The translations under genes were made by a program, and so were the position numbers. A model generated the notes under the pieces. That model was given only the letters and a program-made list of their open reading frames with translations. It was not told the DNA's origin and ran no database searches. From contig CAZSKP010000025.1 in NCBI GenBank assembly GCA_964607485.1, positions 1-64,000 of the forward strand: a DNA stretch of 64,000 bases. Reading direction: 5' to 3'. Source of the stretch: an uncultured bacterium (lineage in GTDB: Bacteria; Abyssobacteria; SURF-5). Shown in pieces: positions 6,388-30,308 of the stretch; the stretch's first letter is position 1, and each line of letters begins with the position of its first letter.

Positions 6388-6807
6388 CTACTCCCCCGCT
6401 AGGCCCTCTTCTAGTTGGCTTATTGTGAGGAGCAGCGTCAAGAGGTTCTGCCTGTCCTGCTCGCTCAATTCGTCAAACTCGGAGCCGATGACATAGAACC
6501 CGCTTGTGGTAGAGGGACGGGTGTGAAGGACTTTTATTCTCGCCGTCATTTCCGGCCCAATGATGGGCCGGACCTTGAAGTGCATGTTGGCCCCTCGAGG
6601 GGGCTCGAAATTGGTTTCGAAACAGGCCCCGTTGATGCATATATTCAGGAGAAGCGCCCCCAGCTTTTTCTCAATGTCGGCCGCACCGGCATGGCCCGCT
6701 TGCGGCTTCACCGTGCAAGAGCAGGCGAATCTCGAGCACGTGAGCCTAGCGCAGCTGCGGCGTTCGTGGTGGGGTCTTTCACACATCTCTATGTGTCCGG
6801 TTTCCAT
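6388..6807 (-). CDS. PilZ-domain protein (putative c-di-GMP receptor)
   Basis: RxxxR ('RRSCAR') and NxxxxG ('NICING') motifs, C-terminal 'GSEF..LSEQDRQNL'. Confidence 0.75.
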   Translation of the reverse strand: METGHIEMCERPHHERRSCARLTCSRFACSCTVKPQAGHAGAADIEKKLGALLLNICINGACFETNFEPPRGANMHFKVRPIIGPEMTARIKVLHTRPSTTSGFYVIGSEFDELSEQDRQNLLTLLLTISQLEEGLAGE

Positions 6808-6831
6808 GGCTTGGCACCGTGAGAGAAATCT

Positions 6832-6846
6832 GCATAAACCTTGCCA
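6832..6846 (-). promoter_or_regulatory. sigma54 (-24/-12) promoter for the PilZ gene
   Basis: TGGCAAGGTTTATGC = GG-N10-GC, 25 nt upstream of the ATG. Confidence 0.6.
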
Positions 6847-6930
6847 AACCGGAGCAAAATGGTGTGATTGCAGGGCCTTTTTACAGAAATTTTCCGATAT
6901 CCCAACGGTTTTTCAAGCCGCCGGCGTCCC

Positions 6931-8460
6931 CTACCGCTGATGACATTGGTAGCAGAGCTCGCCGCCTGTGACGCCCACACGCAAAAGAAACACGATATCC
7001 GTGGCGTGTGGTGTGTGACAGGTGGTGCAGACGACCTCGTCATCGGGGCCGAAATTGAGCTTGTTGTCGGGTCGGATGTCGAGGTCGGCAGAGGGCTTGA
7101 CCCCTACCGGATGGGGGAAATCCTTATGCCGGCTGGGGTGACACAACGAGCAGAGCTGTTCGGTCTCCATCGTCAAATTGCCATTTCCCACACCTGAGTG
7201 GGGCATATGACACGTCGAGCAATTCCCCTCCTTGTACGGAAAATGAACGAAGCGATAAATTCGCTGGGGGCGTGAGTCGTGACAGCGGAAGCACAGGGCC
7301 TGGCCCTCGTCCTTCAAGAGCGCCGGCAGATTACCCATGTGCGGCTGGTGACAGGCGACGCATCCCTGTTCAACCGCCGTATGAGGATGTTGTTCCTGTA
7401 TCTGCTTCGCAATCTCGGAATGACATTTGAAACAGGTCTCTTTTTCGGGACCGGCCAGAATTCCCGGTACGTCCGAACCGTGCGGATTGTGACACTCCAC
7501 GCATTGTCCGTTCGAGAAAGGCTCGTGCAGCCGCGCACCCTCAGGGGGCACGAGTGCATCGGCGTGACAGCGGGAGCAGAGGCCCACGCCCGGCTCGATG
7601 AGCAATGAGCTGTTGGGCGTGGCATGAGGCCCGTGGCAGTTCAGACAATCTTCCTCAGCGGGAAGGTGCGGAAACTTGGATTTCAAGAGCTCCTCGATAT
7701 CCGAATGGCACACGGTGCAGAGTTGCGACCCGACGGCGACCAGCTTCACCTGCTTTTCGCCCTCGGAGATCACATGACAGCTATCGCACATCCCCTCGCT
7801 GAACGGGTAGTGCGCGTTCTCCAGAATCAGCGCTTTGTTCGATGAGAAGTGGCCCTTATGACAAGAGAGACAATCGGTGCCCTCCGAGAGCAGATTCAGG
7901 TGAGCCTTGTTGAAGGCTTCGTCGGTGACGTCGTGACAGCCGGTGCACAGGTCCCACGGCTTCTCAACCAGCAGGGCGCGATTGGGAGAAGTATGCGGAT
8001 TGTGACAGGTCGTACATTCGCCGTCCTCGAACGGCGGATGCACCGAGGCGGGCCTTTCCCCCGCCGGCATTCCCTCGTGGCACATAAGACACAGGTCGGG
8101 CAGCCGGTCAAGCAGGAGAGTGGGATATTCCGACGAATGCGGGCTGTGGCAGGTGGTGCACTCGTCCACGACCGGATGCACCGACTTCATCTCTTCTTCT
8201 TTGGCGTAATCCCTGTGGCAAACCGTGCATATCGCCGAACCCTGCTCGGTAAAGCCGAACGTTTCGGGGTCATGACAGGCGTCGCATTGCTTTGATTCGA
8301 AGGGATAGTGAAGATATTTCTTCTGCAGGGCTTCCTTCATGTCGGCGTGACAGTCGAGACACTCGGTCTTCGTCGGGTCGTGTTCGACGTTAAATCCGGA
8401 GAAAACAAAGAAAACACCCAGCAAGAAGAAGAACCCGCATACGTTTTTTGCCGTTATCAA
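6931..8460 (-). CDS. Multiheme cytochrome c, 20 CXXCH
   Basis: 20 CXXCH counted, arranged as paired H-P..CxxCHxPH..CxxCH repeats; N-terminal signal; TTG start after AGGAG. Confidence 0.92.
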   Translation of the reverse strand: MITAKNVCGFFFLLGVFFVFSGFNVEHDPTKTECLDCHADMKEALQKKYLHYPFESKQCDACHDPETFGFTEQGSAICTVCHRDYAKEEEMKSVHPVVDECTTCHSPHSSEYPTLLLDRLPDLCLMCHEGMPAGERPASVHPPFEDGECTTCHNPHTSPNRALLVEKPWDLCTGCHDVTDEAFNKAHLNLLSEGTDCLSCHKGHFSSNKALILENAHYPFSEGMCDSCHVISEGEKQVKLVAVGSQLCTVCHSDIEELLKSKFPHLPAEEDCLNCHGPHATPNSSLLIEPGVGLCSRCHADALVPPEGARLHEPFSNGQCVECHNPHGSDVPGILAGPEKETCFKCHSEIAKQIQEQHPHTAVEQGCVACHQPHMGNLPALLKDEGQALCFRCHDSRPQRIYRFVHFPYKEGNCSTCHMPHSGVGNGNLTMETEQLCSLCHPSRHKDFPHPVGVKPSADLDIRPDNKLNFGPDDEVVCTTCHTPHATDIVFLLRVGVTGGELCYQCHQR

Positions 8461-8502
8461 ACTCTTTAACTCCTTTTTTGGCGCCCGATTCTGGGCGTTC
8501 GC

Positions 8503-9288
8503 TCAGTGGGAGATGCCCTTGATGGTTTCCCACTCCTGCAACACGGCGCCGTGGGCCTTTTCCCTCTCGGCTTCGGTGGATTCTAACTCCTCCCTCGTGG
8601 GAGCAAGTGGAATGACCGGCTCCTCTATGGGCTTGGCCGGCACGAGCTCTTTCTTCACTTTCAGGGGGAGCCTCGCGACGTAGCCTTCTTTCCCTTCCGG
8701 ATACATCGCCGCCCCGAGCGCCTGCACCATGTCTTTCACCACGATTTCGGACAGAACTCCCAGCGAATTCACTCTCCCTATCCCAAAGACGATTTCCTTA
8801 TAGTCGCCCTGAAGCGAATGGGTCGCCGACCACACAATCTCACCACTGTTCGCGTCGACGAGCCTCAGGGTTATCGAGACTGCGGGCAACAAGCCCAGGT
8901 CGGTCGTGATGGTGGCGTATTCGTTCACGCTCCCAAAGATGATGCCGTCGGCGGTGAGCTCCCGCGAGGCTGCGCGTATGGTGTCGAGATCGAGCTGCGC
9001 CGCGACCCGAATCCGCGAACGGATTATGAACTGTTGAATCTCGCCCGGCTCGACCAGGTTCACAAGGTTCGAATTGTACAACTCCGAAACCAGAATACTC
9101 GTCACCCGGCTTCCGGCCTCGGGCGCACCGCTGAGGTTCTCCAGCGGAAACACCGCTATGCGGTTGAACCGTGTCACCTCGGGCGCGGGCCGCACGCTGA
9201 ACTGTGTGCGTCCGCAGGAGGCGAACACAAGAATGAGTCCAACAGCCACGAAACGCTCTAACGTGCTTTTCTTCGTCATCATTGTCAT
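8503..9288 (-). CDS. Lipoprotein, CsgG/DUF799 (GNA1162)-like
   Basis: Lipobox FASC, 'RIAVFPLENLS', 'ADGIIFGSVNEY', 'ITLRLVDANSGEIVWSA'; ATGA overlap with the upstream gene. Confidence 0.75.
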   Translation of the reverse strand: MTMMTKKSTLERFVAVGLILVFASCGRTQFSVRPAPEVTRFNRIAVFPLENLSGAPEAGSRVTSILVSELYNSNLVNLVEPGEIQQFIIRSRIRVAAQLDLDTIRAASRELTADGIIFGSVNEYATITTDLGLLPAVSITLRLVDANSGEIVWSATHSLQGDYKEIVFGIGRVNSLGVLSEIVVKDMVQALGAAMYPEGKEGYVARLPLKVKKELVPAKPIEEPVIPLAPTREELESTEAEREKAHGAVLQEWETIKGISH

Positions 9289-9860
9289 CTCACCATGTCT
9301 ATCAGTTTGCGACATACCCTTCGAGTGAGAACCGAAAAAAGCTGCTCCTCGCCCACGTCGACCACCGGCACCCTCGGGCTCCCCTCCTCCGACGCGGTAC
9401 CCATGAAGATGATGGTTCCCGTGTTCACGTCCACCCAGCGGACGTTGACCGCCACAACCGGATAGCTTTCGTTCCGAAACCGCTCCCTACCGTACTCCTG
9501 AACGCTGCCGAAGATGAGCGTGTCGGCCCGAAGCGCATTGCCGACCGATTTGATCTGGCTCTGGCTCAGCTTGCTTCCGACGATGCTGTTGTCTCTCAGA
9601 ACGCGCGCCACCTCTCCCGGCTCGACGACTTCGACGTCTATATCCATCAGGAGCTCTGAGATGTAGATCGTCGTCACCTTTTCACCCGCAAACTGGGTAA
9701 CGGTAAGGTTCTCAAACGGAATGACCGCCACGCGCGCGATTGCGCTCAAATCGGCCTCGGGATGCCTGAACGCCTGCACTCCCGTCGCGCATCCCGCAAA
9801 CAGCAACGCCGACACAAGCAGCCAGCTCAGAAAACGCACTCTAAGGATGTTAGATTTCAT
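9285..9860 (-). CDS. Lipoprotein, CsgG/DUF799-like (paralog of the downstream gene)
   Basis: Lipobox FAGC, 'RVAVIPFENLT', 'ADTLIFGSVQEY', 'VNVRWVDVNTGTIIF'; GGAGG RBS before 9860. Confidence 0.75.
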   Translation of the reverse strand: MKSNILRVRFLSWLLVSALLFAGCATGVQAFRHPEADLSAIARVAVIPFENLTVTQFAGEKVTTIYISELLMDIDVEVVEPGEVARVLRDNSIVGSKLSQSQIKSVGNALRADTLIFGSVQEYGRERFRNESYPVVAVNVRWVDVNTGTIIFMGTASEEGSPRVPVVDVGEEQLFSVLTRRVCRKLIDMVR

Positions 9861-9981
9861 CCCCGCCTCCCGGGATCTGTCCCTGTCGCCACGCTCCAAT
9901 TGGTTCACAGCCATCTTCGTCACTCTCCATCTTCAAGCCAAAGTTTCACAGCACAATAAAGAAACGTTCATGGTGCTGCTC

Positions 9982-12486
9982 TCAGAAAATCTTCGTCAGC
10001 TCGACGAACAGGAAATTGCTGTCGGACTGTTGCCCTTCCTCGATCTCCCAATTGATCGACATTCTGGTGTCCCAAAAGAAAGGAAACTTCGCCTGAGTCC
10101 TGAAGCTGAATACTTTCTCCTCATCGGAGCCGCCCCGGTATCCGACGAAGAAAGTCAGTTTGTCGTTCATCTTCCAGACGAGGTTCGATAAATAGCTCAG
10201 CCTATCCGTGGTCATGCCGTCGGACTTGCTCTCTACGTAATCCATATCCAGAAATAAGTCGAGCCGACGGCTGATGGCCCACGCGAGATCCATGCTCCCG
10301 AAGATCGTCTCCGAGCTCACATCGTCCAGCCCGGCGAACTTGCTGTCGCTCTTATTATATTCGGCAGTCGTGTTCAATGTCATGTTGGGCCTCGGCACAA
10401 GCCTCAGCCGACCCCGAACTCGTTGGCTGTCCACCGTGCCGTCGGCCTCGAAATCCTTGGACTGGCTGCTCGAAAGCTGCACATTGAGGTCGACGCCCCG
10501 ATATATTTTCATGTCGGTCGTGGCCGAGAACGTGTCCGTTTCCAGCACCTTCTCGTTTTCCTGCTCATTCTGCTGGTTCGAGTAGCTGAGGTCCACTCTG
10601 ACCCTGTCGGTGGGGAGCAGGTTCAGGCTCAGGTTTGTAAACGTGCTGTCCTCGTCGGGGCCGATATTGGTGTTCAGGTTGGCCAGCTGGTACGTCGCCG
10701 ACATGTTTACCCGAGGTATCGGCTGGAGAGAAAGCGTGTGGGTCTGGATGAATTCGTCACGCTTCGACTTCACATCTCCCGCCTCGGTTTCGAAAAGCTC
10801 AAGGTCGAACAGCGATGTAAACGATACCCAGCGATAGGGCTGGAGTCTGACCTGGGTGGTCAATTCGTGGGTAAGAGACGAGACCAGCTCCTCTCCCGTG
10901 TCCTTGTCCTCCTCCTTCGATTTGAAAAACTCGTAGTCCACAGAGGCATAGACTCCCTGAACCAGCTCGCGGGAATAGATGATGTTGAACGAATCCGACA
11001 TCAGATGCGTGCTCCGGCCCCGCTCCTCGCCGCTTATGGAGCCGACCTGGAAGATGAACATGCCGGCGCTCGTGAGCACCTGAAACCTGTCGTTTCCCGT
11101 GTCGGCAACAACGACGTCGTCGGCCGGCGTCAGGGCTATTCCACTGGGGGCATTGAACTCGCCGGGGCCGGTTCCCGAGGCGCCAAATTCATTCAGGAAC
11201 GCCCCCGCCGTGGTGAACACCTGTACCCTGTTGTTTCCCGTATCCGTCACGTACACCCGATTGACGGAATCGAGCGCGACATCCGTGGGAGATTGAAACT
11301 GGCCGGGGCTGGAGCCGAACGAGCCCCACTGAGTCACGAATGCGCCAGCCGTCGTGAACACCTGCACGCGGTGGTTCTGGGTGTCGGCCACGAACACGAG
11401 GCTGCCGTTCGACGCGATTCCCGACGGCGCGGAGAAGTTGCCCGGACCGGAACCGGTGGTGCCGAACGAAAACAAGAAGGCTCCGGCGTCGGTGAACTTC
11501 TGCACGCGGTCGTTCCCCTGGTCTGTCACGTACACGCCCGTGCCGTCAACCGCGACGCCATAGGGAGCGTCGAATTCACCCGCGCCGAGGCCGAACGTGC
11601 CCCATTCGGAGACGAACGTGCCCGTCTGGTCGAACCTCTGCACGCGGTCGTTGTCCGAATCGACCACGTACACAAAACTCGGAGTCACGTCTATCCCCAA
11701 CGGATTCCTGAACTGGCCCTCGCCGCTTCCGAAGCTGCCGAATTCTCCCAGAAACGCTCCCGAAGAGCTGAACCTGAAGACACGGTTCGCCGTTGAATCC
11801 GTCGCGTAAATGACCCCCGCGGAATCCACGGCGACGCCCCTGACATTCTGCAGGGTCGTGGTGGTGAGCGTGGAGAGGTTGTTATCGAATTCCGTTTCCC
11901 GATGCGAATACCTTACGGACAGCGGCCCATTATCGTACGTCGAGCGTATTCCCCAGTTGGTCTCGACGAAATCGGTCTGCGGCTCCTCCGCATCGTCTTC
12001 GGTTGAGATCCTTGAGAAATCCACCGTAAGGTCGGGATAGTCAGGGTCGGGCTCATAGTAGAAATTCGAGAAGAGAGTGTTGGACGTCAGGGTAAGGCCG
12101 CCTTCCTCGAGGTCTTTCTGTTTGAACTCTCGATATTCCACCAGCCATCGGTATTCCGGCCCCCTCAGGTTGAATCCGGCCAGCGGCCTGAGTTCCTCGG
12201 AGTCGGGGTTGTTTTGCTCCTCTCGGGAGAACTGAAAATAGAGGTCCAACAAATCCACGTTGCTCAGGGCCGTGCTCCAATTCAGGCGAAACCTCTGTTC
12301 AAAAGAGGAGAAGACCTCGCCGTCTTCTTCCTGTCTAAGGTAGTTCACGGTCGCCGATCCGCTCATTTCGCCGGCCCGCACGCTCACCGACCACAACAAC
12401 AATGCGCCGGTTACGAGCAAGAGCCGGCCTGCTCCTATGCATGAGGAAGACAGTTTACGCGGTTGCACATTCGATTTCTGGTTCAC
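9982..12486 (-). CDS. Outer-membrane beta-barrel with an inserted six-bladed NHL propeller
   Basis: Signal peptide, alternating amphipathic beta strands on both sides of six NHL repeats, C-terminal Phe ('FVELTKIF'). Confidence 0.8.
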   Translation of the reverse strand: MNQKSNVQPRKLSSSCIGAGRLLLVTGALLLWSVSVRAGEMSGSATVNYLRQEEDGEVFSSFEQRFRLNWSTALSNVDLLDLYFQFSREEQNNPDSEELRPLAGFNLRGPEYRWLVEYREFKQKDLEEGGLTLTSNTLFSNFYYEPDPDYPDLTVDFSRISTEDDAEEPQTDFVETNWGIRSTYDNGPLSVRYSHRETEFDNNLSTLTTTTLQNVRGVAVDSAGVIYATDSTANRVFRFSSSGAFLGEFGSFGSGEGQFRNPLGIDVTPSFVYVVDSDNDRVQRFDQTGTFVSEWGTFGLGAGEFDAPYGVAVDGTGVYVTDQGNDRVQKFTDAGAFLFSFGTTGSGPGNFSAPSGIASNGSLVFVADTQNHRVQVFTTAGAFVTQWGSFGSSPGQFQSPTDVALDSVNRVYVTDTGNNRVQVFTTAGAFLNEFGASGTGPGEFNAPSGIALTPADDVVVADTGNDRFQVLTSAGMFIFQVGSISGEERGRSTHLMSDSFNIIYSRELVQGVYASVDYEFFKSKEEDKDTGEELVSSLTHELTTQVRLQPYRWVSFTSLFDLELFETEAGDVKSKRDEFIQTHTLSLQPIPRVNMSATYQLANLNTNIGPDEDSTFTNLSLNLLPTDRVRVDLSYSNQQNEQENEKVLETDTFSATTDMKIYRGVDLNVQLSSSQSKDFEADGTVDSQRVRGRLRLVPRPNMTLNTTAEYNKSDSKFAGLDDVSSETIFGSMDLAWAISRRLDLFLDMDYVESKSDGMTTDRLSYLSNLVWKMNDKLTFFVGYRGGSDEEKVFSFRTQAKFPFFWDTRMSINWEIEEGQQSDSNFLFVELTKIF

Positions 12487-12527: not shown

Positions 12528-14012
12528 CTAATTATGACAAGCCACGTTGCAGTCGCCTTCATCCCAATCTCCGCTCGGCCCCCAGTTCGGGATATCGCTC
12601 TCCAACAACAATACCGTGCCGCCCCGGAGCCTGGCCGGGTCGCTCGTGGTCACGAGCAACGCCCGCCGGTTGATTCCATGCGGAATCTTGTCATGGCAGT
12701 CCATACACCCGATTGGCCGGTTCGCGACGACATTGTCCTGCTGAGAGTGAAATCCATGCAGGTTTCTAGTCCCGCCGTCCGAGGAAAAACCCGTGTTGCG
12801 ATTATCGTTTGCCTGCGCGTAGGTCGAAAAATCGTGGCACAGGAAGCAGAGGTGTCCGCTCGTGTCCTGCGTGGGCTGACCGGTTGTCACATCCCACGTA
12901 GCCTTCAACAGAAACTGAAGTTGGGAACCGTGGGGGCCTTCGGGGTCGCGCTCGACGTCGCTGCCGTGACAGTCGGAGCAGTACATCTGAGAGTCCCATC
13001 TCCAGCCGTTCACGAATTCGCCCCGGCCGTCGAGGTTGGGCGTCTGGATGACGTTGTGCGAACTCTCGTTGTTGGGGTTGAACTCGATCGACTGGTCCGT
13101 CTCCTGGCCTCCTCCCAGAGGCAACAGAGGCGGAAACGATCCATAGGCCCAGTATGAATGACACTTGAAACAAAGCTGATATTCGAATTGAATGTCGAAG
13201 GTCTGGTCCTTCGGCTCAAACGTCGGGAACGTGTCGGGCATGCCTCCATAGTTGGCCACGACGAAACTCGAGCCCATAAGCACGCCCGATGCCTGGTTTG
13301 TGCCCTGAACGTGAAGGTCCCCGGTGTGTACGTGCACGTTGTGGCAATCGACGCACTCGACATGTCGGCCCTGACCGGAAAAATTCGAGGAAATCATCTC
13401 TTCTCCCGCCCTGTGACGCCCGGCCATCTGGCGGTTGTCTATCTGGTGGGTAAATTGGTAAGTCAACTGCGTCTGGATGTCCTTCTGAGCGGGACCGGCC
13501 ACCCTGTGGCATCCCAGACACAAGTCTTCCTCCCGCCTGAACAAAAGCGAAGGCATCAGCCCCTCCGCGTCGCCCCAGCCGTGCGGCGTGTGACAGTTGA
13601 CGCACTTCCCCTTGGCTTCCGGCTCCATCCGGGCCGGAGGCTCCGGGCCAGGCCATCGCACCAGAAAGTCATTCTTGTGAATGGAGCGCTCGTACACGGA
13701 CGAGTCGCGATATGTCTCCTTCGGGCTTTCACCCGAGTGGCAGGTGAAGCACAACTGGTTGGTATCCTCCATCCAGAGCGCAAAATCGGTGGCGGCGCCG
13801 GGCGTTCCGTGCATCGAATGGCAATGCTCGCAGTCGCCCGGCGGAAGCGACGGGTCGCGCTTCACCCCTGTCGTCGGGTCTCCATGCAGCGTAGATGTGT
13901 ACAGTCCACCGCGCGCCCATCCGACGGATGCAACGCGCAAGGTAAGAATCGAGAGCGCGGCCAGCGCTGCGGCGACCATTACGATTTTCTTGACTGTCTG
14001 TCTCTTAGTCAT
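12528..14012 (-). CDS. Multiheme cytochrome c (9 CXXCH plus terminal CX3CH)
   Basis: CEHCH, CFTCH, CVNCH, CLGCH, CVDCH, CFKCH, CSDCH, CFLCH, CMDCH, CNVACH; signal peptide. Confidence 0.9.
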   Translation of the reverse strand: MTKRQTVKKIVMVAAALAALSILTLRVASVGWARGGLYTSTLHGDPTTGVKRDPSLPPGDCEHCHSMHGTPGAATDFALWMEDTNQLCFTCHSGESPKETYRDSSVYERSIHKNDFLVRWPGPEPPARMEPEAKGKCVNCHTPHGWGDAEGLMPSLLFRREEDLCLGCHRVAGPAQKDIQTQLTYQFTHQIDNRQMAGRHRAGEEMISSNFSGQGRHVECVDCHNVHVHTGDLHVQGTNQASGVLMGSSFVVANYGGMPDTFPTFEPKDQTFDIQFEYQLCFKCHSYWAYGSFPPLLPLGGGQETDQSIEFNPNNESSHNVIQTPNLDGRGEFVNGWRWDSQMYCSDCHGSDVERDPEGPHGSQLQFLLKATWDVTTGQPTQDTSGHLCFLCHDFSTYAQANDNRNTGFSSDGGTRNLHGFHSQQDNVVANRPIGCMDCHDKIPHGINRRALLVTTSDPARLRGGTVLLLESDIPNWGPSGDWDEGDCNVACHN

Positions 14013-14021
14013 TACGGAAGC

Positions 14022-15107
14022 TCACTCGTTGTGACACTGTTGACAGGGCGCATACGCGTCGGCGACGTTTCCGGGTGTTTTGAAAGGCCACGTCGCGCCG
14101 GCGCCATAGGGACCTCCGTGGGCGAAATGGCAGCTTTCGCAGAAGACCTCATTGCTTGCGGAAACCGCCCTGGCGGTCTCGAGGCTCGTCGCCGAAGGGT
14201 TCTGAAAGCGAACCCTCGGCATACCCGGCGTCGCGTCGCCCGTCGCCAGCCCAAAGCCGGCCCCCTCGCCGCCCAGCCAGTGCTGGAGGTCGACATGCGA
14301 GCCGCCGATTCCCATGCTGACATCCGCCGGATGCGCCTGGAAATGAGCGGGAAGCGTTCCCGCCTGCGTGGGGAGCAGCCCGTCGTGACATTCGGCGCAC
14401 CACTCTGACATCCTCGAACGATAGGCCACGTTGGAAATCCTGTATGCCTCCGCCGGATTGGTCCCGTCGGGATGGACCTCCTCGAACACGTCGTCGGTCG
14501 GAAGCTCCGGGTCGTGGTGGGCCAAGGGCGTGCCCGCTCCGGCGCCCGGACGGCTCTTGAGGTTCCTGTAGTACTGATTTCCGTGAGGGTCGTGGCAGCT
14601 CGTGCACTTGAGCACCGCAGGCGCCATTTCGCTGAAGGGAACCTCTGCGGGGAACACTCCGAGGTCGTGGCCCTTTTCGCTCTCGCTGCCTCCACTGTAC
14701 TCGAAGTATCCACCGGCGGAGAATTCGTCGGGCCCATAGGGTGTCGAAACAGGCGCCAACACGTCGGCCGCATCGACATCGGAGCCGTCGTGACAACTCA
14801 GGCACAGCTTGGTCGGAGACGAGAAGAGGAGAAGCTTCTCGAACGGGCCCCCCGGCTCCGCCCCGACGGGAGGCCTGCCATGCTGGCTGAAGTGGGCCGT
14901 GTGGCACTTCGAGCACACCTGTCCCTCGATGTGAAACTCGCCTGCAAGGGTCGTGCCCGCGGAGGCCGAGAACAGAAGCGCGAACAGCAGCGCCAGCTTC
15001 CCGAACCTTCCGAGAAGGCGATTACCTCTGCAACATCTTGAAGGCCTGAAGCCTCGAGGCCCCTTTTTCGAGAACATAGAGAGTCCTCTCGCCGAAGGCA
15101 ATATCAA
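14022..15107 (-). CDS. OmcS/OmcT-like hexaheme cytochrome c (second copy)
   Basis: Mature start 'FHIEGQVCSKCHTAH', six CXXCH, 'CTSCHDPHGNQYYRNL', 'MSEWCAECH'. True start uncertain because the ORF overlaps the upstream NHL gene. Confidence 0.8.
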   Translation of the reverse strand: MILPSARGLSMFSKKGPRGFRPSRCCRGNRLLGRFGKLALLFALLFSASAGTTLAGEFHIEGQVCSKCHTAHFSQHGRPPVGAEPGGPFEKLLLFSSPTKLCLSCHDGSDVDAADVLAPVSTPYGPDEFSAGGYFEYSGGSESEKGHDLGVFPAEVPFSEMAPAVLKCTSCHDPHGNQYYRNLKSRPGAGAGTPLAHHDPELPTDDVFEEVHPDGTNPAEAYRISNVAYRSRMSEWCAECHDGLLPTQAGTLPAHFQAHPADVSMGIGGSHVDLQHWLGGEGAGFGLATGDATPGMPRVRFQNPSATSLETARAVSASNEVFCESCHFAHGGPYGAGATWPFKTPGNVADAYAPCQQCHNE

Positions 15108-15945: not shown

Positions 15946-16085
15946 ACCTCTCGGACACCGTGTCGGCCGATGGAATCCGGCAATGTCAACTCAAATTGTA
16001 CCAACTATATTAGCAATGTTTTCGGTCAAAAGCAATCGAAAACGAGCATTCTGAAGGTGCCAGATTCTTGCATCAGCGTCAAGCG

Positions 16086-16130
16086 AAAAAATCGAAGGAG
16101 GCGCTCCCTCGTTCAGGAAGCGCCTCCTCC
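16086..16130 (-). terminator. Intrinsic terminator downstream of the OmcS-like gene
   Basis: GGAGGAGGCGCTTCC-N7-GGGAGCGCCTCCTTC followed by GATTTTTT on the minus strand. Confidence 0.65.
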
Positions 16131-18502: not shown

Positions 18503-18517
18503 GCAACACCCATGCCA
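18503..18517 (-). promoter_or_regulatory. sigma54 (-24/-12) promoter for the NHL-omcS unit
   Basis: TGGCATGGGTGTTGC, near-consensus GG-N10-GC. Confidence 0.75.
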
Positions 18518-22196: not shown

Positions 22197-22625
22197 CTAG
22201 TCCATGTTCTTGTACGCGATGAACTGAAAATAGTAACCGGGCTGGTGGATCATGTGAGGGATGGGGTTCTGGTACAAAATCCACGTTTCATACATCAACT
22301 TCTCCTGGTACAAGACCGCCAACTGCAACGCCGGATTCAGCGGCTTGTCCGAGCGGGAGGAGACCTTCTTGGTCTTCATGTTAATCACAAAATCGGGAAT
22401 GAACCTCTCCACCTTCACTGAGTACTCAGTGTCCGCAATGAAAAACTCCTCGCCCACGCGCACCCAATGGTCTTCGTAAGCTTGCTCGTCCAAAATGTGG
22501 CGGACGCGGATGTCGTACGTCGGGCCGGTCGCCTTCGTCGTCTGGCACGCGACAATCGTAACCAGAATCGCCCACACAAACGCAGCGATTACTTTCGCTC
22601 GGATTCTGGTTCCTTGAAATTTCAT
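22197..22625 (-). CDS. Lipoprotein resembling the periplasmic domain of the neighbouring ResB
   Basis: Lipobox IVAC; 'VERFIPDFVINMKTKKVSSRSDKPLNPA'. Confidence 0.7.
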   Translation of the reverse strand: MKFQGTRIRAKVIAAFVWAILVTIVACQTTKATGPTYDIRVRHILDEQAYEDHWVRVGEEFFIADTEYSVKVERFIPDFVINMKTKKVSSRSDKPLNPALQLAVLYQEKLMYETWILYQNPIPHMIHQPGYYFQFIAYKNMD

Positions 22626-22813
22626 GTTGAAGTCAACGTTATAAAGCAAAAAGAGTTCTTGAAGGACTCGCAATTTTCATGCCACGAGCGCTCAAACAAT
22701 ATAACATTATACATGCTTTTCGGCAAAACGCAACTCCCGGCCACAGAGCCGCTCAACTTTTTCTTCACCACAGGGTACACGACACGCACAGCGATCAAAT
22801 TCCTGGAAACCTC

Positions 22814-22896
22814 ACGCCAAGACGCCAAGGCGCAAAGAACGCAAAGGAAGACGTCGTTCAAGACTCTGGACTCTGGACCTTGGACTTTGGACTCAG
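22814..22896. repeat. Two short tandem-repeat tracts
   Basis: About 4x (A/G)CGC(C/A)AAG at 22814-22846 and 5x GAC(T/C)nnG heptamer at 22862-22896. Confidence 0.7.
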
Positions 22897-23699
22897 GCGT
22901 AGGCGTGGAGGCCGGCGAGCCAGTAGTTGACGCCGAGGTAGGTGAACACGACGCAGCAGAATCCCACGACAGCCATGATCGCCGAGGCTCTGCCGCGCAT
23001 GCCGCCGAATCGCATATGCAGGCAGCCCGCGTAGATAAACCACGTGATGAACGACCAGCTTTCCTTCGGGTCCCAGCTCCAGTAGCTTCCCCAGCACGTG
23101 TTCGCCCACACGGCTCCCGTGACGACGCCCAGCGTGAGCAGCGGGAACCCGAACGCGATCGCCCGGTAGGTGAACCAGTCGAGAAAGTCGGCGGTCTCGC
23201 CGATGCGAACCCGAACCGGAAGTCTCAGCAGGCGGACTATTCCCATGTCGAGAAACAGGTAAGCCGCCGCAGAAACGAACGCAAGCCCGAACGAGGCGTA
23301 CCCGAGGAAAGAAGCGAGAACGTGGAACAGCAGCCAGTTGCTCCTGAGCGATGGCAGGAGCGGCTCGATCTCGGACGACATCAGCGAACACGCCGACAGA
23401 ACGACGGCGGCGGCGAGGCTCGCGAACCCGCCCAGCGCCGGCAGCCCGTACCGCTTGTGCGCAACGATGGAGGCGGCCATCAGGAGCAGCGAAAAGAGGA
23501 CCAGCGTCTCGTACGTGTTCGTCACGGGCATCCTGTGTGCGACGATGCCGCGATGGACGATGTAGGCGAGGTGAATAACGATGCCCGAGAGCCCCAGTGC
23601 CCCGGCGAGCTTCGATTGCCACGGCCGCCTCGACAGAGCCGCCAGAAAGAAAAAGATGCTGGCGGCGAAATAGATCAGTTGCACCACTCCGAGCCACAC
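22893..23699 (-). CDS. ccsA: Cytochrome c biogenesis system II heme channel (CcsA/ResC)
   Basis: WWD motif 'GAVWANTCWGSYWSWDPKE', conserved His residues, C-terminal 'GLHAYA'. Confidence 0.95.
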   Translation of the reverse strand: MWLGVVQLIYFAASIFFFLAALSRRPWQSKLAGALGLSGIVIHLAYIVHRGIVAHRMPVTNTYETLVLFSLLLMAASIVAHKRYGLPALGGFASLAAAVVLSACSLMSSEIEPLLPSLRSNWLLFHVLASFLGYASFGLAFVSAAAYLFLDMGIVRLLRLPVRVRIGETADFLDWFTYRAIAFGFPLLTLGVVTGAVWANTCWGSYWSWDPKESWSFITWFIYAGCLHMRFGGMRGRASAIMAVVGFCCVVFTYLGVNYWLAGLHAYA

Positions 23700-23706: not shown

Positions 23707-25065
23707 TCACTCCCCTATCGCTTTGCGCAGTTGCGCGAGCAGTCCGTTCCACTCATACACAAAGTCGGGTCTATTCTTCACGCTGTAACTCAAAACTCTT
23801 ATGCGCCCGCTTTCGCCCGACTCTCCGCCGTCGAACTCAACCCGGACGAACCGCCGGAACATGTAGCAAGAAACGAGCGCGCCGCCCACGAGGAGCACAA
23901 ACCCGAAATAAGCGAACGCGGCGCCGGGGTCTTTCACTATCTTGATGCCGGAATAATATTTCAGACTCACTCGCTCGATAGCGAGCGTGAGCGGGCCGGA
24001 CGAGGAGTCGTGCCGCGGCACAATTCCCTTGAAGGCCCATCCGGTCCACACAGGCTGCTCGCTCCGGGCCGGAGAATACACGGACACCTTCGCTGCCGGG
24101 TTCAGGAAGAACCGGCTGCGCGAAAACACATTGTTCTTCGAGTCGATGGCGAAATCGGGAACGATCTCTTTCAGCTCGACCGCCATGTCCCGGCCGGCTA
24201 TGTCGGCGCGTTTGCCGGGCACAAGCCTTATGCTTGCGACAGGCGAGCGGGTTGCCGGTTTAAACGCGACGAGGCTCACATAGCGGACGTCGGGGCGATA
24301 ACGCATTTGATAAAGAGTCGCCCCTCCGACGGAGAGCGGCTGATTCACGCGCAGCATGTGCCAGCTTGGGGCGCCGTCGTTGCCTGTGACCATCAGGGTG
24401 CTGACATATTCCTCGGGCTCTCTCGTGCCCGGATGATGAACGATGGAGAATTTCTCGAGCCTGAGTTTCGTCTGAGTATCGGGAATCGTGTACGTCTCTC
24501 CCTCGCCCAGCATGATTTCGCGGACGGTTCCGAAATTGTGGGTGACGAGCCCGCCGACAAATGCGACGACCAGCCCGAGATGCACAACCAGCGGCCCCAG
24601 CACTCCGGCGCGTCCCTTGTCGAACAGGACGGCCTCGTCGGCCGGTTCGGCAGAGGCTGCGCGCGCGTGGTATCCCCTGTCGCGCAGAATTCGCGTTACT
24701 TTCTTGCGGACCGTTTCTCTTGAAGCCTCGGAAATAGGAATGGAGTGCGTCGCCACTCCGTCCTCGCGGGACCACGCCGCTTTGTCGGGGATGAAAGCGA
24801 AGGCCCTGATTACCGAGGGCAGCCTCCTGAGCGAGCAGTAGATCATCAACGAAGCGAGGAAGACGAGAAGCGATGTGTACCACCACGTGTGATAGAGGTT
24901 CTCCGCGCCGATAGCCCGGAGCAGCCCGGATAAAACTCTCCCGACGGTTCCGGTCTCAAGAAGCTTGACCGGAATCGTGCCGAGAACGGAAGCGAGCCCA
25001 ACGGCGCAAATGAGGGCGATGGTCAGCGCCGGCGAGCGCAGTTTCTGGTCGATCGTCCGCCACAC
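23707..25065 (-). CDS. resB: Cytochrome c biogenesis system II protein (ResB/CcsB)
   Basis: 'SVLGT', 'YHTWWY', 'CSLRR', 'VHLG', 'VNQPL..G..LYQ', 'KDPG'; adjacent to ccsA. Confidence 0.9.
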   Translation of the reverse strand: MWRTIDQKLRSPALTIALICAVGLASVLGTIPVKLLETGTVGRVLSGLLRAIGAENLYHTWWYTSLLVFLASLMIYCSLRRLPSVIRAFAFIPDKAAWSREDGVATHSIPISEASRETVRKKVTRILRDRGYHARAASAEPADEAVLFDKGRAGVLGPLVVHLGLVVAFVGGLVTHNFGTVREIMLGEGETYTIPDTQTKLRLEKFSIVHHPGTREPEEYVSTLMVTGNDGAPSWHMLRVNQPLSVGGATLYQMRYRPDVRYVSLVAFKPATRSPVASIRLVPGKRADIAGRDMAVELKEIVPDFAIDSKNNVFSRSRFFLNPAAKVSVYSPARSEQPVWTGWAFKGIVPRHDSSSGPLTLAIERVSLKYYSGIKIVKDPGAAFAYFGFVLLVGGALVSCYMFRRFVRVEFDGGESGESGRIRVLSYSVKNRPDFVYEWNGLLAQLRKAIGE

Positions 25066-25147: not shown

Positions 25148-25168
25148 CTCCGTTGCGGTCAGGCGAGC

Positions 25169-27181
25169 TCAGAATCGATACGCGAGCGCCACATAGAAGC
25201 CGTGCCCGTGGTAATCTTCAAAGCCGTCGCCCAACTCGTCATCAAAGTCGAAGTATTCGTATCGCGCGCTGACGGTCTTGTTTTCGGCCAACTTGTACTC
25301 CACCCCCAACCAGATTTCGTCAAGCGCGTTGTCCACATCTTTACCGCCGCTCTCAGTGTGCTGGTATGCTGCTTTGGTGGCCCACTTATCGTTTATCACG
25401 TAATTGCCGCTCGTGAAGAATACCAATGAATCGTACCTGTAGTCGTACTTGCCGGTGCCGGGCGCCCACTGGTTGCCCACCGGCACGTTCGTCGGGGTGT
25501 CCAGTCTGTAGTTCTCGTACATCGCCATGCCGGTCAGCGTGATTCGGGTGGTGGGACTGCCGAAGACAGTCGCGGAAATCCGGTGCACGTCCAGGTCCTG
25601 CCCGTCAGTATTCTGAATGTCGAACCGCCTCTCGTCGCTCTCGAACTGATACTTGACCGTTGTCGTCCAGGCCGGCAGGAAATGCCAGTCTCCCTTTAGA
25701 GTAACCTCGTGAACGTCCCGCTTGAGGTCACCCAATATGCCAGGGTATGCGTCCGGTTCGAGGTCAAATTCTTCATCGTAGTCTTCATCGTTATCCTTAA
25801 AACGGTACCGAGCTGTCAGCCTTAGTTTCGGGCAGGGACGGTTCACGACGGTAATCGTGTACTCTTGGTTGTTGTAGTCGATATCGGCATCCCGCGAGAA
25901 GGTTCCCTCCACGACCTCTTTGACGTCCATGAACCTTTGTTCCCACTCTCCTTCGAGCGAGACGGTCGTATTCGGGAATCCCTTCCACACCAGCTCGACC
26001 GACTCGCCCAGCCGTGTGTCTTCCCAATCGGTCGCATTCGTCACCGGTTCGAGAACCCCGCCAAAGGGCGTCTGCTGACCCGTATGGTCGCCGTCGGTGT
26101 CGGAATGTTCCGCCCTGAAATTGGTGTGAATCGTCAGGTCTTTTGCTACATTCAAAAACACGAGCCCGAGAGTGACCACATCAGTTGTGCGGTCGTTGTC
26201 AACGTCGGTATCGATGAATACAAAAGGCCTGGTGAGACTGCCCGGTTGGAACACGTCGCGCTCAAACTCGTTCTTGATATCGCTGTGGTAGTAGTTTGCG
26301 CTCACGTAAATGTTCTCGGTGAGGAAGCTGTCGAAGCTAAACAGAGTTCGAAACTCCCTCCACTCCGGACTGTCGTCATGGATAACCGTGTCGCCAACGA
26401 CGTTGGAGAGAGCAACGGAGAGCTCGTCGTCCCGGAAATCCTCATACTCTTGTCTGAATTTGAAGTTGTACTTGTCGTTGATGGTCACGGGAATTTCCAC
26501 ATACACGGTGTCGCTTTCGCCGTCGAGGTCGTTGATTGTCGGAATCGAGCGCTGCCTCGGGAGCGGGTCGTTTTGCGCGAGCCCTCCCAGGAGCAGTTTC
26601 TCATCCCCGAAGCGTTCCCAGTGATGCCATCCCAGTACGACGTGAGGAATGTCGGGAATCAGCAGCGTGCCCTCTAGGTTCAGGTCAACACGGTCCGCGT
26701 ACAGGTTGTCATCGTCAAAATCGTTAAAACTGCTAGGCAGGCCGTAAAGGGTCGGGTCCCACACATCATTGGAAGAGCCGTCATAATATCTACGGTGCTT
26801 GGCGAATTCGAAATCCACGCGAAACACGTCGGGCTTGATGTAGTGCGCATCGCCTGCAAACTGATCCTCAGGTATCGCGCGAATGGAGACTTTGAGATTT
26901 TCGCTCGAGTAGGAAAGATGCTCGAAGCCGCCAGTGAAATCGTTGTCGATGAAGCGGTCTTCGCGAAAGCGGCCCTCGTCGCCGTTCACCTCGTAGTAGG
27001 TCAATCCCCCGCGCGCGTACCAGCCGTAATACCAGCCGTTCAAATCGTCTTCTCCATAAGGATAATACCAACTGTTCAAGTTTTCCAGCGGGTCCTCGTC
27101 CGCGCCGGCGATGGCAGGGCAAACCATAACCACAAGCAGGCCGACCAGCAACGCCGGAAGGAATTTCTTGGTCGCGTTCAT
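25169..27181 (-). CDS. MtrB/PioB-like outer-membrane porin
   Basis: Signal peptide, 'GDEGRFRED', long acidic amphipathic beta-strand pattern, C-terminal 'YVALAYRF'; follows an MtrA-like cytochrome. Confidence 0.78.
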   Translation of the reverse strand: MNATKKFLPALLVGLLVVMVCPAIAGADEDPLENLNSWYYPYGEDDLNGWYYGWYARGGLTYYEVNGDEGRFREDRFIDNDFTGGFEHLSYSSENLKVSIRAIPEDQFAGDAHYIKPDVFRVDFEFAKHRRYYDGSSNDVWDPTLYGLPSSFNDFDDDNLYADRVDLNLEGTLLIPDIPHVVLGWHHWERFGDEKLLLGGLAQNDPLPRQRSIPTINDLDGESDTVYVEIPVTINDKYNFKFRQEYEDFRDDELSVALSNVVGDTVIHDDSPEWREFRTLFSFDSFLTENIYVSANYYHSDIKNEFERDVFQPGSLTRPFVFIDTDVDNDRTTDVVTLGLVFLNVAKDLTIHTNFRAEHSDTDGDHTGQQTPFGGVLEPVTNATDWEDTRLGESVELVWKGFPNTTVSLEGEWEQRFMDVKEVVEGTFSRDADIDYNNQEYTITVVNRPCPKLRLTARYRFKDNDEDYDEEFDLEPDAYPGILGDLKRDVHEVTLKGDWHFLPAWTTTVKYQFESDERRFDIQNTDGQDLDVHRISATVFGSPTTRITLTGMAMYENYRLDTPTNVPVGNQWAPGTGKYDYRYDSLVFFTSGNYVINDKWATKAAYQHTESGGKDVDNALDEIWLGVEYKLAENKTVSARYEYFDFDDELGDGFEDYHGHGFYVALAYRF

Positions 27182-27248
27182 ATTCAAAACCCCCTGATTG
27201 TGCGCTGTGACCATTGTTTGTTGGCAACCTTCGGATTCGTTCCGCCGT

Positions 27249-28028
27249 CTAATTCAGGAAGTTACGTTCGATGTTAGACCCGTGAGGAGCGGAGTGATGG
27301 TCGACGCATTGCTCTCCCCGGCCCACCTGAACGACAACGCCGTGGGGGAAGTCGCCGATGGATCCAAGCACAGTATTTACGGAAGGCTCCCAATGGCATC
27401 GGATGCACGTCACAGTCTGATCGGCAACCAGCATCTTTTCGTAGACCGAACCGTGCGGATCGTGACATATTTGACAGCCGTCGCGCACGGGGTCGTGCTC
27501 GAACACGAACGGACCTCTTTGTTTCTTATGACATCTGAAGCAGATTTCCCCCGGTCGCAGGACCGAGACGGCCGACCACGGCCTCACGTCTTCGCCGTGG
27601 GGGTTATGACAATCCGTGCATTTCATCCACTTTTCCGGGACGGGATGATGATACTGAAGCTGAAACCTGCCGCGTATGTCCACGTGGCAAGTGAAGCAGC
27701 GGTTGGCGGAATACCTGACAATCTTGCTTGGGTCTCCGCCGGCATCGACGTGGAGGCTGCCCGCCCCGTGGCAGGACTCGCAAGCCTCGCCCTTGACCTG
27801 CTCCCCCTCTTTCACGCTTGTGCCAAAGTGGGAGGTCAGTCGAAATCGCTCCGCCTGATCGGGGTGGCACGCCTCGCAGGTTTCCATGCCCACGTATTCC
27901 GCCCCTTTGATCATCGGCCCGGCGAGACTCATCTGGCCGTGAGGTGAAGTCGTTTGACAGGAGAGGATGAGCGCGGAACCCAGGAGGCCAGCTACCAAAA
28001 TCCTTACTACCCAGCGAACTGTCGGCAT
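27249..28028 (-). CDS. MtrA/DmsE-like multiheme lipoprotein cytochrome (7 CXXCH plus CVDHH)
   Basis: Lipobox ILSC; 'YVGMETCEACH', 'CESCHGAGSLH', 'HHPV', 'KQRGPFVFEHDPV', C-terminal 'HGSN'. Confidence 0.88.
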   Translation of the reverse strand: MPTVRWVVRILVAGLLGSALILSCQTTSPHGQMSLAGPMIKGAEYVGMETCEACHPDQAERFRLTSHFGTSVKEGEQVKGEACESCHGAGSLHVDAGGDPSKIVRYSANRCFTCHVDIRGRFQLQYHHPVPEKWMKCTDCHNPHGEDVRPWSAVSVLRPGEICFRCHKKQRGPFVFEHDPVRDGCQICHDPHGSVYEKMLVADQTVTCIRCHWEPSVNTVLGSIGDFPHGVVVQVGRGEQCVDHHSAPHGSNIERNFLN

Positions 28029-28255: not shown

Positions 28256-28766
28256 GGGAAAAAACCGAGGTTGGAAGAGATTTCCCCATTTTTCTCTTCT
28301 TTTTCGTCACGAAATGCTGCTTTTCAAGAACATTGCTACTCTTTCTTTAAGGCAACTCTCCGGAAGCAAACGCAGGCCGCATGGCCGTGCATCCTTGCGA
28401 CCGACTCTCAAGTGTGGCATCGGGATAATGAAGACACGTTAGCAGAATCAAGTACACGATGCCGCACCATGTACCGGGCATGCCAGCTTCATACCAAGCC
28501 TCATCCGGAGTTGACCACAGACCTCAAATGAGGCGCTGCGCGGCCGAATTTGTCCAGCGCGCGTCTGCAGAATCCCCCCATCGAGTATGCACATTACGTA
28601 ACCCCTCGTTTCCACCGTCTGCTTCCTCGCACCGATGTTCCGCACGCACGCGGAAGCAACTCCTGTCTCTCGAATTTTTCTGTAACCAAGAGAGTTACAG
28701 GAGCGAGGGCCATTTGTTGCGGAAGAACTGGAAGGCAAAATGCAATCCGGCGGGGATTACAATTCG

Positions 28767-28805
28767 GACATTTTTTCTCTCAAAATGTCGTGGATTTCTT
28801 GACAT
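28767..28805. promoter_or_regulatory. Overlapping inverted repeats, candidate bEBP enhancer
   Basis: GACATTTT-N7-AAAATGTC and ATGTC-N11-GACAT, about 100 bp upstream of a sigma54 site. Confidence 0.5.
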
Positions 28806-28888
28806 ACAATCAAAAGCCGACGCGTATCCCTTCATTACCCATTGGAACATATGGAGATAGGTGCAAATATCAGGCGAATTCCGACTAT

Positions 28889-28903
28889 TGGCATAGTAAT
28901 TGC
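28889..28903 (+). promoter_or_regulatory. sigma54 (-24/-12) promoter
   Basis: TGGCATAGTAATTGC, near-consensus GG-N10-GC. Confidence 0.75.
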
Positions 28904-29264
28904 CTTTTCCTCGACACAAAATAAGAGGCACCATCAGCGAAGACCGTCGAAAGCCCGCTGATGGCGCCGGGAAATGTGGGGATTACTCTTTCTTCCCCTT
29001 CATATTCTACCATTCATTCGAACGACTGTCAAACAATCACGTCAGCAGAGTATTTCCCCACATCTTCCCGAGCGTTTGGTCAGTGCGGCGCGTCGGCGGC
29101 CGAAGTCAAACCGCGAAACCATAACCGTCTGGAAAATACTGACATCAGGAATTGCAGAGAGGGGGGATGCGCTTACAAAGAGGCAGGCGTCTGGATCCCA
29201 AGATATGGGAGAAAGCATGCATCGGTTGTTTTTCAAAATGCAGGGTAATTCTTAGGGGGAAACA

Positions 29265-30308
29265 ATGAAGCTCAGATTCCTTTTGCTAGTGACAGTGTTC
29301 CTGGCAGCAATCTGTCTGACGGTGTTTTCACCGACGCAGGCCACAGCCGAACCGACTTTCTTCGCGCAGTACTGCGCGGGCTGTCACACGAATGATAGTG
29401 CCACATGCAACGGCTGCCATGCGCACGGCGTGTGGCAGAGCTCTTCGAGACAGGTCATGAACCTGACGGCTACCACCGACCTCGACCAGTATCAGCCCGG
29501 CCAGACGGTGACGGTCACATTCAGTGGAGGGTATCGCCACGGATGGATTCGAGCGATACTGTACGATCACAATTCGCAGGAGGTTGACAGGATCACCGGC
29601 CCGACCGGCATGGGCGACGACGGCACTGGGTCCTCCGACCTGGAGTTCCCGGTGCTGCTCTCGGCAGCGGCTCCTTCGACACCGGGTTTCTACACATGGA
29701 GCGTCTCCTGGTTCGGCTCGCCGTTCGATACAAACAACTCGAACGTATATCCTCACGTTCAGGAAAACGTCCCGACCAACGAGTTCGAAGTCCTTCCCGT
29801 TAGCTGTAACGACGCCGACGGCGACGGCTACGAAGATGCCGCGTGTAATCCCGACCCCGCGAACGGGGGCGGCGACTGTGACGACACCGACGCATCGGTC
29901 AATCCGGGAATGACGGAGGTCTGCGACGACGGCATCGATAACGATTGCGACGGGCTTGTAGACGCAAACGACCCGGACTGTGGAACGGCACTGACGCAGA
30001 TAACTCTCAATTCTCCACAGAATCTTGCTAACGTTTCCTCACCTCCGACGTTCTCCTGGACGCCCGACGGAGGCACGAATTGCGTCTTCGCGGTTGACCT
30101 GGCCCTGTCGCCCACGGGTCCGATTTACTCCACTTACGAGAACATGCATCAACCCATTCACGTCACGACGTGGACCATGCCCGCGTCGATATGGAACAAA
30201 ATCCCTTCAGGAAAGCGGGTGTACTGGCGGGTGCGCGGCGCAGACATGGACGTAGTGCCGCGAAACATCATCACGTCCAATAGCGTGCGGTCGTTCTACA
30301 AGCAATGA
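29265..30308 (+). CDS. Exported diheme cytochrome c with acidic Cys-rich metal-binding repeat and C-terminal beta domain
   Basis: Signal peptide; CAGCH and CNGCH; 'CNDADGDGY..DCDDTDASVNPGMTEVCDDGIDNDCDG' (MopE-like putative metal-binding motif); GGGGG RBS. Confidence 0.8.
   Translation: MKLRFLLLVTVFLAAICLTVFSPTQATAEPTFFAQYCAGCHTNDSATCNGCHAHGVWQSSSRQVMNLTATTDLDQYQPGQTVTVTFSGGYRHGWIRAILYDHNSQEVDRITGPTGMGDDGTGSSDLEFPVLLSAAAPSTPGFYTWSVSWFGSPFDTNNSNVYPHVQENVPTNEFEVLPVSCNDADGDGYEDAACNPDPANGGGDCDDTDASVNPGMTEVCDDGIDNDCDGLVDANDPDCGTALTQITLNSPQNLANVSSPPTFSWTPDGGTNCVFAVDLALSPTGPIYSTYENMHQPIHVTTWTMPASIWNKIPSGKRVYWRVRGADMDVVPRNIITSNSVRSFYKQ

Follow-up and report, generated by a model that had tools for sequence, protein, structure and literature searches.

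The closest described relative of the gene cluster analysed here is the omcS-companion (osc) cluster of Geobacter sulfurreducens, GSU2505-GSU2493, which was reportedly described by Shen et al. in 2025. The cluster in question lies at positions 6388-30308 of a 64,000-nucleotide stretch (the window) of contig CAZSKP010000025.1 (assembly GCA_964607485.1), which derives from an uncultured bacterium of the Abyssobacteria. OmcS carries 12 axial histidines, one of which is supplied by the neighbouring subunit (PMC6584659). The osc numbering places oscC at GSU2501, oscI at GSU2495 and oscJ at GSU2494, and OscH has been proposed to fold OmcS (PMC13194489). An eight-gene block, GSU2500-GSU2493, was defined in PMC12977616, and the secretion and anchoring of cytochrome nanowires are still speculative (PMC12307469). 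In the reference locus used for comparison (L105/L106 of genome G080; OmcS identical to PDB 6ef8 over 407 residues), the names OscD to OscH were inferred from gene order. G and L numbers denote genomes and loci of the collection, G000 being the genome that holds the window.

The region consists of two modules side by side, module A (mtrA-mtrB-resB-ccsA and a divergent diheme gene) and module B, which runs from 22684 down to 6334. Module B is a variant of the published osc system that is specific to the Abyssobacteria, and not a new system. The overall best explanation, to which we assign a probability of about 0.65, is that module B encodes a system of the osc type that secretes and wires an OmcS-family filament, with module A as an independent conduit. 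Open reading frame (ORF) checks and motif counts upheld the 18 genes, their order and positions, and the 92 CXXCH heme motifs listed in an earlier first-pass annotation of the window (20 in the 20-heme cytochrome, 9 in H10, 6 each in S2 and S1, 16 in the 16-heme, 26 in the 26-heme, 7 in the MtrA-like and 2 in the diheme protein). Counted in six frames, the motif occurred 93 times within 6388-30308, compared with a mean of 1.6 and a maximum of 4 in shuffled sequences (n = 30), and once in the remaining 40 kb of the window. The G+C content of the genes ranged from 52 to 64% (genome, 57.4%), and their codon use resembled that of the genome, with no special codon bias in S1; a recent transfer of the cluster was rejected on account of this genome-like composition. 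No Rfam family matched anywhere in the window at the gathering score. The cluster is carried by 5 of the 11 genomes of the class in the collection (G000, G003, G004, G006, and G009), called carriers below. All features described lie on the minus strand unless stated otherwise.

Module B and its counterparts in the osc locus

S1 (16254..17351), the probable major secreted subunit, matched the OmcS nanowire structure (PDB 6ef8, E 1.6e-48), and OmcS and S1 were reciprocal best hits at 35% identity when the reference osc proteins were searched against the whole G000 proteome. S2 (14022..15107), a divergent hexaheme and possible minor subunit, matched the same structure at E 6e-7. The likeness to the OmcS nanowire (PDB 6ef8/6nef) consists of six CXXCH motifs and six further histidines in the same places, whereas S1 falls short of OmcS by about 65 residues and S2 is a much more remote relative. 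The earlier assignment of both proteins to the OmcS family is sustained, and all 15 aligned rows, among them those of S1 and S2, keep the 12 OmcS histidines. We take His16 to be the shared inter-subunit histidine of OmcS. A quick tree without bootstrap (59 rows from 35 loci plus the window and the reference) grouped S1 with homologues of the Krumholzibacteria/Zixibacteria type and gave S2 a long branch of its own. A filament has been seen for OmcS; for S1, the odds lean slightly towards polymerization in the same manner, via the histidine common to adjoining subunits.

Homology of the companion genes to those of G. sulfurreducens, stated in the first-pass annotation, could be established by reciprocal hits and profile matches. 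Further reciprocal best hits linked GSU2505, the gene before omcS, to the propeller protein NHL1 (17411..18478; 27%, E 1e-32), OscF to LipG1 (9285..9923; 29%, E 6e-19), OscG to LipG2 (8503..9315; about 30%, E 1e-12) and OscI (GSU2495) to the 26-heme cytochrome (20196..22169; 33% over 656 amino acids, E 1e-122). LipG2 matched one of the two domains of OscG (profile E 1e-30). The 16-heme cytochrome (18869..20125) is the counterpart of OscJ (GSU2494; 37% over the first 288 amino acids, E 2e-55), with a match that stops at a frameshift in the reference gene, and it stands after the 26-heme gene as in osc. The second propeller protein, NHL2 (15022..15945; PF01436), gave best E-values of 4e-10 and 1e-5 against osc proteins and a weak placement in a quick tree without bootstrap; its orthology to OscK is unsure. 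The eight-gene block GSU2500-GSU2493 is not kept, since five of its eight genes have clear counterparts and these are split in two units, and locus comparison bore out the earlier view of a rearranged, expanded gene order. The cluster thus shares with osc the OmcS-family hexahemes, the upstream NHL gene, the OscE-type barrel, the OscF/G-type lipoproteins and the 26/16-heme pair. It differs in having no OscD or OscH orthologue, a ResB-domain lipoprotein before the 26-heme gene, a barrel with an NHL propeller instead of the central domain of OscE, a one-domain OscG counterpart, additional S2, H10, 20-heme and PilZ genes, and a 26/16-heme pair shifted upstream of the omcS homologue.

The outer-membrane barrel (9982..12486), with its inserted six-bladed NHL propeller, was recognized as OscE-like by a profile of 35 barrels, Abyssobacteria excluded, which found OscE at E 3.9e-204 and, at E 2.3e-32, each of the two halves of the window barrel, in which NHL repeats take the place of the central domain. 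A further profile value, E 9.5e-126, was circular and was left out of account. The AlphaFold model (pLDDT 83.8) had 28 long strands by our count (9 + 19), with the propeller after strand 9, and the turn lengths suggest, in our reading of the model, that the propeller faces outward. The propeller reached Z 39 in a structure search; the fold search of the barrel gave propellers only. The idea that the propeller is a captured OscD was rejected, as the OscD profile had no match there. The barrel-NHL fusion was represented by 16 matches among 3037 candidates, all with a propeller, and within the class it is limited to the five carriers.

PelC-type lipoproteins have a ring architecture. The two lipoproteins had been called CsgG/DUF799-like, a label to be amended in that, among solved structures, the LipG1 family profile is closer to PelC (PDB 9h80, E 2.3e-8). 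With the PelBC export complex, the cluster shares the lipoprotein fold of the LipG1/OscF family and the arrangement of barrel plus lipoprotein, whereas the window barrel is different and larger, and its cargo would be a cytochrome rather than a polysaccharide.

H10 (12528..14012) had been listed as a 10-heme protein; it is a cytochrome, with a motif count of nine CXXCH plus a C-terminal CX3CH, and it belongs to a widespread unstudied family (1182 hits). In an HHalign comparison (98.5%, 44 columns), its first two hemes resemble the start of OmcS. The reading that H10 has a known nanowire fold was rejected, with no PDB sequence hit and nothing under E 0.001 in Foldseek; the best VIA Z-scores, 7.2 to MtrA and 4.7 to OmcS, were within the chance range. 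The 20-heme cytochrome (6931..8460), a paralogue of the 16/26-heme pair with 32% identity to OscI, stood at this point of the cluster in all four relatives. The gene of the PilZ-domain protein (6388..6807; PF07238, 33.5 bits), the last of the operon, lay downstream of the 20-heme gene in all four relatives, about 4 kb off in two. S2, H10, 20-heme and PilZ additions were shared by G003, G006, and G009; in G004, the part from the barrel to PilZ sits on another contig, and S2 and H10 were not found there.

Sigma-54-type (-24/-12) sites precede lipX (22670..22684) and the NHL1-S1 pair (18503..18517), each in 5 of 5 carriers (the window and 4 of 4 relatives), while the background of the pattern in the genome is 0.028 per kb; a sigma-54 gene is present in G000. 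Directly after S1 stands a G+C-rich terminator-like hairpin (16094..16130; 16 pairs and a T run), which was similar in all five carriers and showed changes on both sides in 2 of 12 consensus pairs. An extended -10 promoter-like motif before NHL2 (16007..16035) was conserved in 4 of 4 genomes with NHL2 and had one match genome-wide, for a pattern that was fitted to those same four genomes. Another terminator-like hairpin (6334..6366; 15 pairs) follows pilZ. The layout of promoter and terminator fits S1 abundance, and S1 would be the abundant product, judging from its own promoter unit and terminator. Two more sigma-54-type sites, each some 360 bases from the gene that follows, were observed ahead of the divergent diheme gene (window:28889-28903, plus strand) and ahead of oscC in the reference locus (L105:9425).

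The absence of OscH and OscD had been overlooked in the first-pass annotation. Among 72 loci examined, an OscH-type gene was present in 27 of the 29 non-Abyssobacteria loci with a large OscI-type cytochrome, and it stands directly upstream of the OscI-type gene in L043, L047, L062, L065, L072, L075 and the reference. None of the five Abyssobacteria clusters has it; lipX stands upstream of the 26-heme gene instead. BLAST gave no OscH hit at 1e-3 in G000 (4.7 Mb, 97.5% complete, 93 contigs), and the OscH profile (OscH itself, 2.6e-165) matched there only partial housekeeping peptidyl-prolyl isomerases (PPIases; best 9.7e-29), as it did in G004, G006, and G009. G003, and also G001, which has no S1, contain an OscH-like gene of full length (E about 1e-45) at another cytochrome locus. 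These loci, L131 (G003:C140) and L130 (G001:C290), represent a second type of cytochrome locus, in which a 561-amino-acid OscH-like PPIase is encoded between multiheme genes. For OscD, all 11 genomes of the class gave matches to its propeller part only, and its N-terminal domain had no significant match in G000. Among 44 other barrel loci, some of them incomplete, 13 likewise showed no OscD, so its loss is not special. Clusters of the Krumholzibacteria/Fibrobacterota type (L033, L034, L035, L043, L046, L056, and L058), in which OscD was not seen, contain one 42-heme protein, apparently the 26-/16-heme pair fused.

LipX (22197..22625; start most likely at 22625) had been annotated as a plain lipoprotein, which is correct as far as it goes; this 142-amino-acid protein in the oscH position could be further identified as a stand-alone homologue of a ResB periplasmic subdomain. 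Its histidines H43, H53 and H124 are invariant. It matched the neighbouring ResB at BLAST E 6e-6, and among the 221 representatives of its profile, 19 of the 20 longer ones scanned were ResB proteins, and none of the 14 short ones fell into a Pfam family. Full-length LipX was present in 5 of 5 carriers, in 0 of the 6 other genomes of the class and in 0 of 72 outside loci; LipX, the barrel and S1 co-occur in the identical 5 of 11 genomes. No solved structural relative of LipX was found, and Atlas matches to DUF2155 at 0.84 serve as a lead only. A weak stand-alone LipX-like ORF (E 1e-6) was noted in a G. sulfurreducens-type genome, far from osc, at L160 (G080:C1:49154-49408). By analogy, LipX is plausible as a helper because the periplasmic region of CcsB has been proposed to control substrate access and release (PMC10663686).

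Module A and its ResB/CcsA pair

The MtrA-like lipoprotein cytochrome of module A (27249..28028) matched MtrA of Shewanella (PDB 6r2q_A, E 3.4e-24). The earlier MtrA-like label stands as to homology; the protein is no decaheme, having seven CXXCH motifs and a C-terminal CXXHH that aligns with MtrA heme 10 (TIGR03508 160 bits, cut-off 192). The adjoining porin of 681 amino acids (25169..27214) is MtrB/PioB-like (PF11854 30.6 bits, cut-off 23) and stays far below the cut-off of TIGR03509. ResB (CcsB; 23707..25065; PF05140, 162 bits) and CcsA (ResC; 22893..23699; TIGR03144 220.9 bits, cut-off 187.6) follow, and a secreted diheme protein with MopE-type repeats (29265..30308, plus strand; PF11617), encoded divergently, belongs with the module. 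The likeness to MtrAB of Shewanella (PDB 6r2q) is a cytochrome and an MtrB/PioB-family porin in tandem; the window differs in heme count (10 in MtrA), in the lipoprotein signal, in having no MtrC in the locus and in its own resB-ccsA. No MtrC/OmcA was found in the locus or among 39 chosen proteins of other cytochrome loci, this family being one for which no genome-wide search was made.

The mtrA-mtrB-resB-ccsA block recurs in G003, G007, and G009 in other surroundings, and two diheme homologues are likewise divergent from mtrA in G007. The last motif in the top 120 homologues of the MtrA-like protein was CXXHH in 56, CXXCH in 24 and another form in 40 (mostly CX4CH). Within the class, a run ending in resB-ccsA was found for 5 of 5 CXXHH copies and 0 of 2 CXXCH copies. 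One MtrA-like copy, L136:10849-11622 (G003:C139), has a canonical last motif and a methionine in place of the last distal histidine. The pattern of CXXHH with resB-ccsA was found in 4 of 401 genomes, all of this family, and a wider scan of metagenomes gave one locus, of the CX4CH form. The literature search found no paper on CXXHH as a heme motif. Wolinella succinogenes is known to have CcsBA paralogues dedicated to odd motifs (PMC10663686), namely NrfI for CXXCK and CcsA1 for CX15CH (PMC10663686, PMC12285233). Like these, module A has an extra system II synthase next to an odd-motif cytochrome, besides a housekeeping copy; it differs in that the motif is CXXHH with one cysteine, ResB and CcsA are unfused, and the substrate link is drawn from seven copies. 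Judging from this pattern, the ResB/CcsA pair of module A would most likely serve its own MtrA-like cytochrome. ResB genes occur in all 11 genomes of the class, and G000 has three, the third being a 766-amino-acid frame, possibly fused, at L170:7526-9826 (G000:C4), which had no NCBIfam hit at 1e-8.

Proposed mechanism and rival explanations

In the proposed mechanism, sigma-54 promoters would drive lipX-26heme-16heme and NHL1-S1, the terminator after S1 would lead to S1 being made in excess, and a separate promoter would drive NHL2-S2-H10-barrel-LipG1-LipG2-20heme-pilZ. S1 would be matured in the periplasm and then pass through the OscE-type barrel of roughly 28 strands, seated on a ring of PelC-like lipoproteins with the propeller on the outer face. 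The 16-, 20-, and 26-heme proteins would wire the periplasm to the S1 filament, and S2 and H10 may be minor, capping or adaptor subunits. PilZ may tie the system to cyclic di-GMP, and LipX, as a freed ResB domain, would stand in as the helper where the chaperone OscH is missing. Module A would work as an independent porin-cytochrome unit. The outcome would be an exchange of electrons with solids or cells in the surroundings, electron export to Fe(III) being the likelier direction. It is rather unlikely that all parts of a fuller scheme hold jointly, namely chaperone-free OmcS-type filaments, built by LipX handing heme-loaded subunits to the propeller-bearing barrel with S2/H10 as cap or base, together with a dedicated CcsBA that attaches heme by a single cysteine at a CXXHH site at the porin exit.

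Several points weigh against these proposals. The quick tree leaves S1 out of the OmcS/OmcT/OscC clade, and the window barrel had no BLAST hit to OscE, its match coming from the profile; the pTM of its model was 0.58. With OscH missing, the cluster might not make filaments; the full-length OscH-like gene of G003 lies elsewhere in that genome, housekeeping PPIases could fill the role of OscH, and LipX could act otherwise. OmcS is the only member known as a wire, and true wires of other genera cannot be recognized from sequence (PMC12977616). What part OmcS filaments play in iron reduction is itself a matter of dispute (PMC12580347, PMC13194489). On the side of module A, the seven copies behind the CXXHH-CcsBA link are all kin, and a resB-ccsA pair in G. 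sulfurreducens (L162) adjoins a different cytochrome cluster, whose motifs are ordinary, so co-location need not signal an odd substrate.

Module B might instead be a large porin-cytochrome conduit without filaments, with a 16-, 20- or 26-heme chain running through the barrel and with S1, S2 and H10 acting as monomeric reductases at the surface. We consider this unlikely. The barrel, at 28 strands in the model count, would be near the size of MtrB-type sheaths, OscH and OscD are missing, and most OmcS paralogues have no demonstrated filament; S1, however, has all 12 histidines, including the surplus one that is neighbour-supplied in OmcS, it has a promoter unit and terminator of its own as for an abundant subunit, and a further S1 gene stands alone in three relatives. 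These second copies (62-64%) lie off-cluster at G003:C145:34481-35569, G006:C105:4813-5793 and G009:C18:40141-41262.

The first-pass annotation had regarded the locus as self-contained, with its own maturation and conduit. Taken to its full extent, the whole 24 kb would be one co-evolved machine that relies on ResB/CcsA for the maturation of all 92 hemes and on MtrAB for charging the wire. The same strand and the gap of 267 bases from ccsA to lipX agree with this, as does the derivation of LipX from ResB, which ties module B to system II. Judged by the relatives, it is largely refuted, and we hold it improbable: module A adjoins module B in 1 of 5 carriers, G000 being the only one of the 11 genomes of the class with this arrangement, the two are unlinked in G003 and G009, the window porin has no match in the carriers G004 and G006, and module A is present in G007, where S1 is absent. 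Moreover, a separate sigma-54 site opens module B, and another ResB/CcsA pair elsewhere in G000 speaks against the claim of own maturation. It would be very improbable that the filament is mainly structural, in biofilm or adhesion, or that the cluster is decaying after loss of the chaperone; every heme ligand is kept, the G+C content is genome-like (57.4%), and the frames are all intact, with 50-78% identity across four genera, even if the PelC-like ring and PilZ recall biofilm systems and OmcS deletion is not always harmful to electron transfer.

Read as an osc-type secretion and wiring system, a cluster that does without two proposed osc parts, with one swapped and a propeller fused, would tell which parts are dispensable, and it offers direct swap tests in Geobacter. 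The Abyssobacteria are anaerobes of subsurface water and sediments, for which the cluster gives a concrete candidate mechanism beyond flags from marker screens. For cytochrome c biogenesis, a separate lead that can be tested is the CXXHH site together with its own maturation pair.

Host, distribution and neighbouring genes

A small-subunit ribosomal RNA gene was not found in the assembly, and the host was placed by genome kinship and named neighbours. The best named match of S1 (72%) was Ca. Abyssobacteria SURF_17 (L025), the named matches of H10 and the barrel were likewise from Abyssobacteria, and the genome that holds L025 agreed in its matches with G006, which belongs to the same family as G000. 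The host is a member of the family of Ca. Abyssobacteria SURF_17 and not of the Geobacterales, in agreement with the earlier impression that it did not look like Geobacter. The gene order from lipX to the 20-heme gene is kept in G003, G006, and G009, and the two cluster ends of G004 sit on two contigs. Among 39 chosen proteins of 127 ORFs scanned, G000 also holds two QrcABCD sets and Tmc/Hmc-like and bc-type complexes. No match to dsrA over the cut-off was found in G000, so sulfate reduction would not be the electron sink. The excerpts of the lineage description (PMC6121073) contain neither the word 'extracellular' nor iron respiration.

A total of 131 S1 relatives were confirmed in genome contigs. 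The 78 loci listed come from Krumholzibacteria, Zixibacteria, Fibrobacterota, Ignavibacteria, Calditrichota, Acidobacteriota, Nitrospirota, Rokubacteria, Desulfobacterota and others, and most of the longer ones contain NHL, OmcS, OscD, OscE, F, G, H, 26-heme and 16-heme genes. With osc-type loci in many phyla, an osc-type cluster outside Geobacter is ordinary. The suggestion of nanowire electron transfer in an undescribed lineage therefore holds only in part, since Abyssubacteria have also been flagged as possible iron reducers in marker screens (PMC12501874 Table 3, PMC10809760). No description of the window arrangement was found in the literature searched, a scope outside which lie Shen et al. 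2025 and its supplements, which may list Abyssobacteria. An OmcS homologue of Desulfurivibrio was up more than 100-fold on iron oxide (PMC12545173), which supports a role for distant OmcS homologues; 'Abyss' is absent from the main text of that paper. Related systems appear in PMC5815863, PMC10954620, PMC13712944 and a peat preprint, and they leave the reading unchanged.

Two further observations concern the surroundings of the cluster. Class IIC group II introns insert behind terminators. In G004, the sequences at L021:10930-11032 (end of G004:C136), right after the S1 hairpin, and L161:1-100 (start of G004:C58), at the start of the barrel contig, look like the ends of such an intron, with no Rfam match at the gathering score; if both belong to one copy, G004 would be without NHL2-S2-H10. 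Downstream of pilZ (window:249-6299), and not kept beside the cluster in relatives, stand genes for a molybdopterin oxidoreductase, an Fe-S protein and a 902-amino-acid sulfatase lipoprotein.

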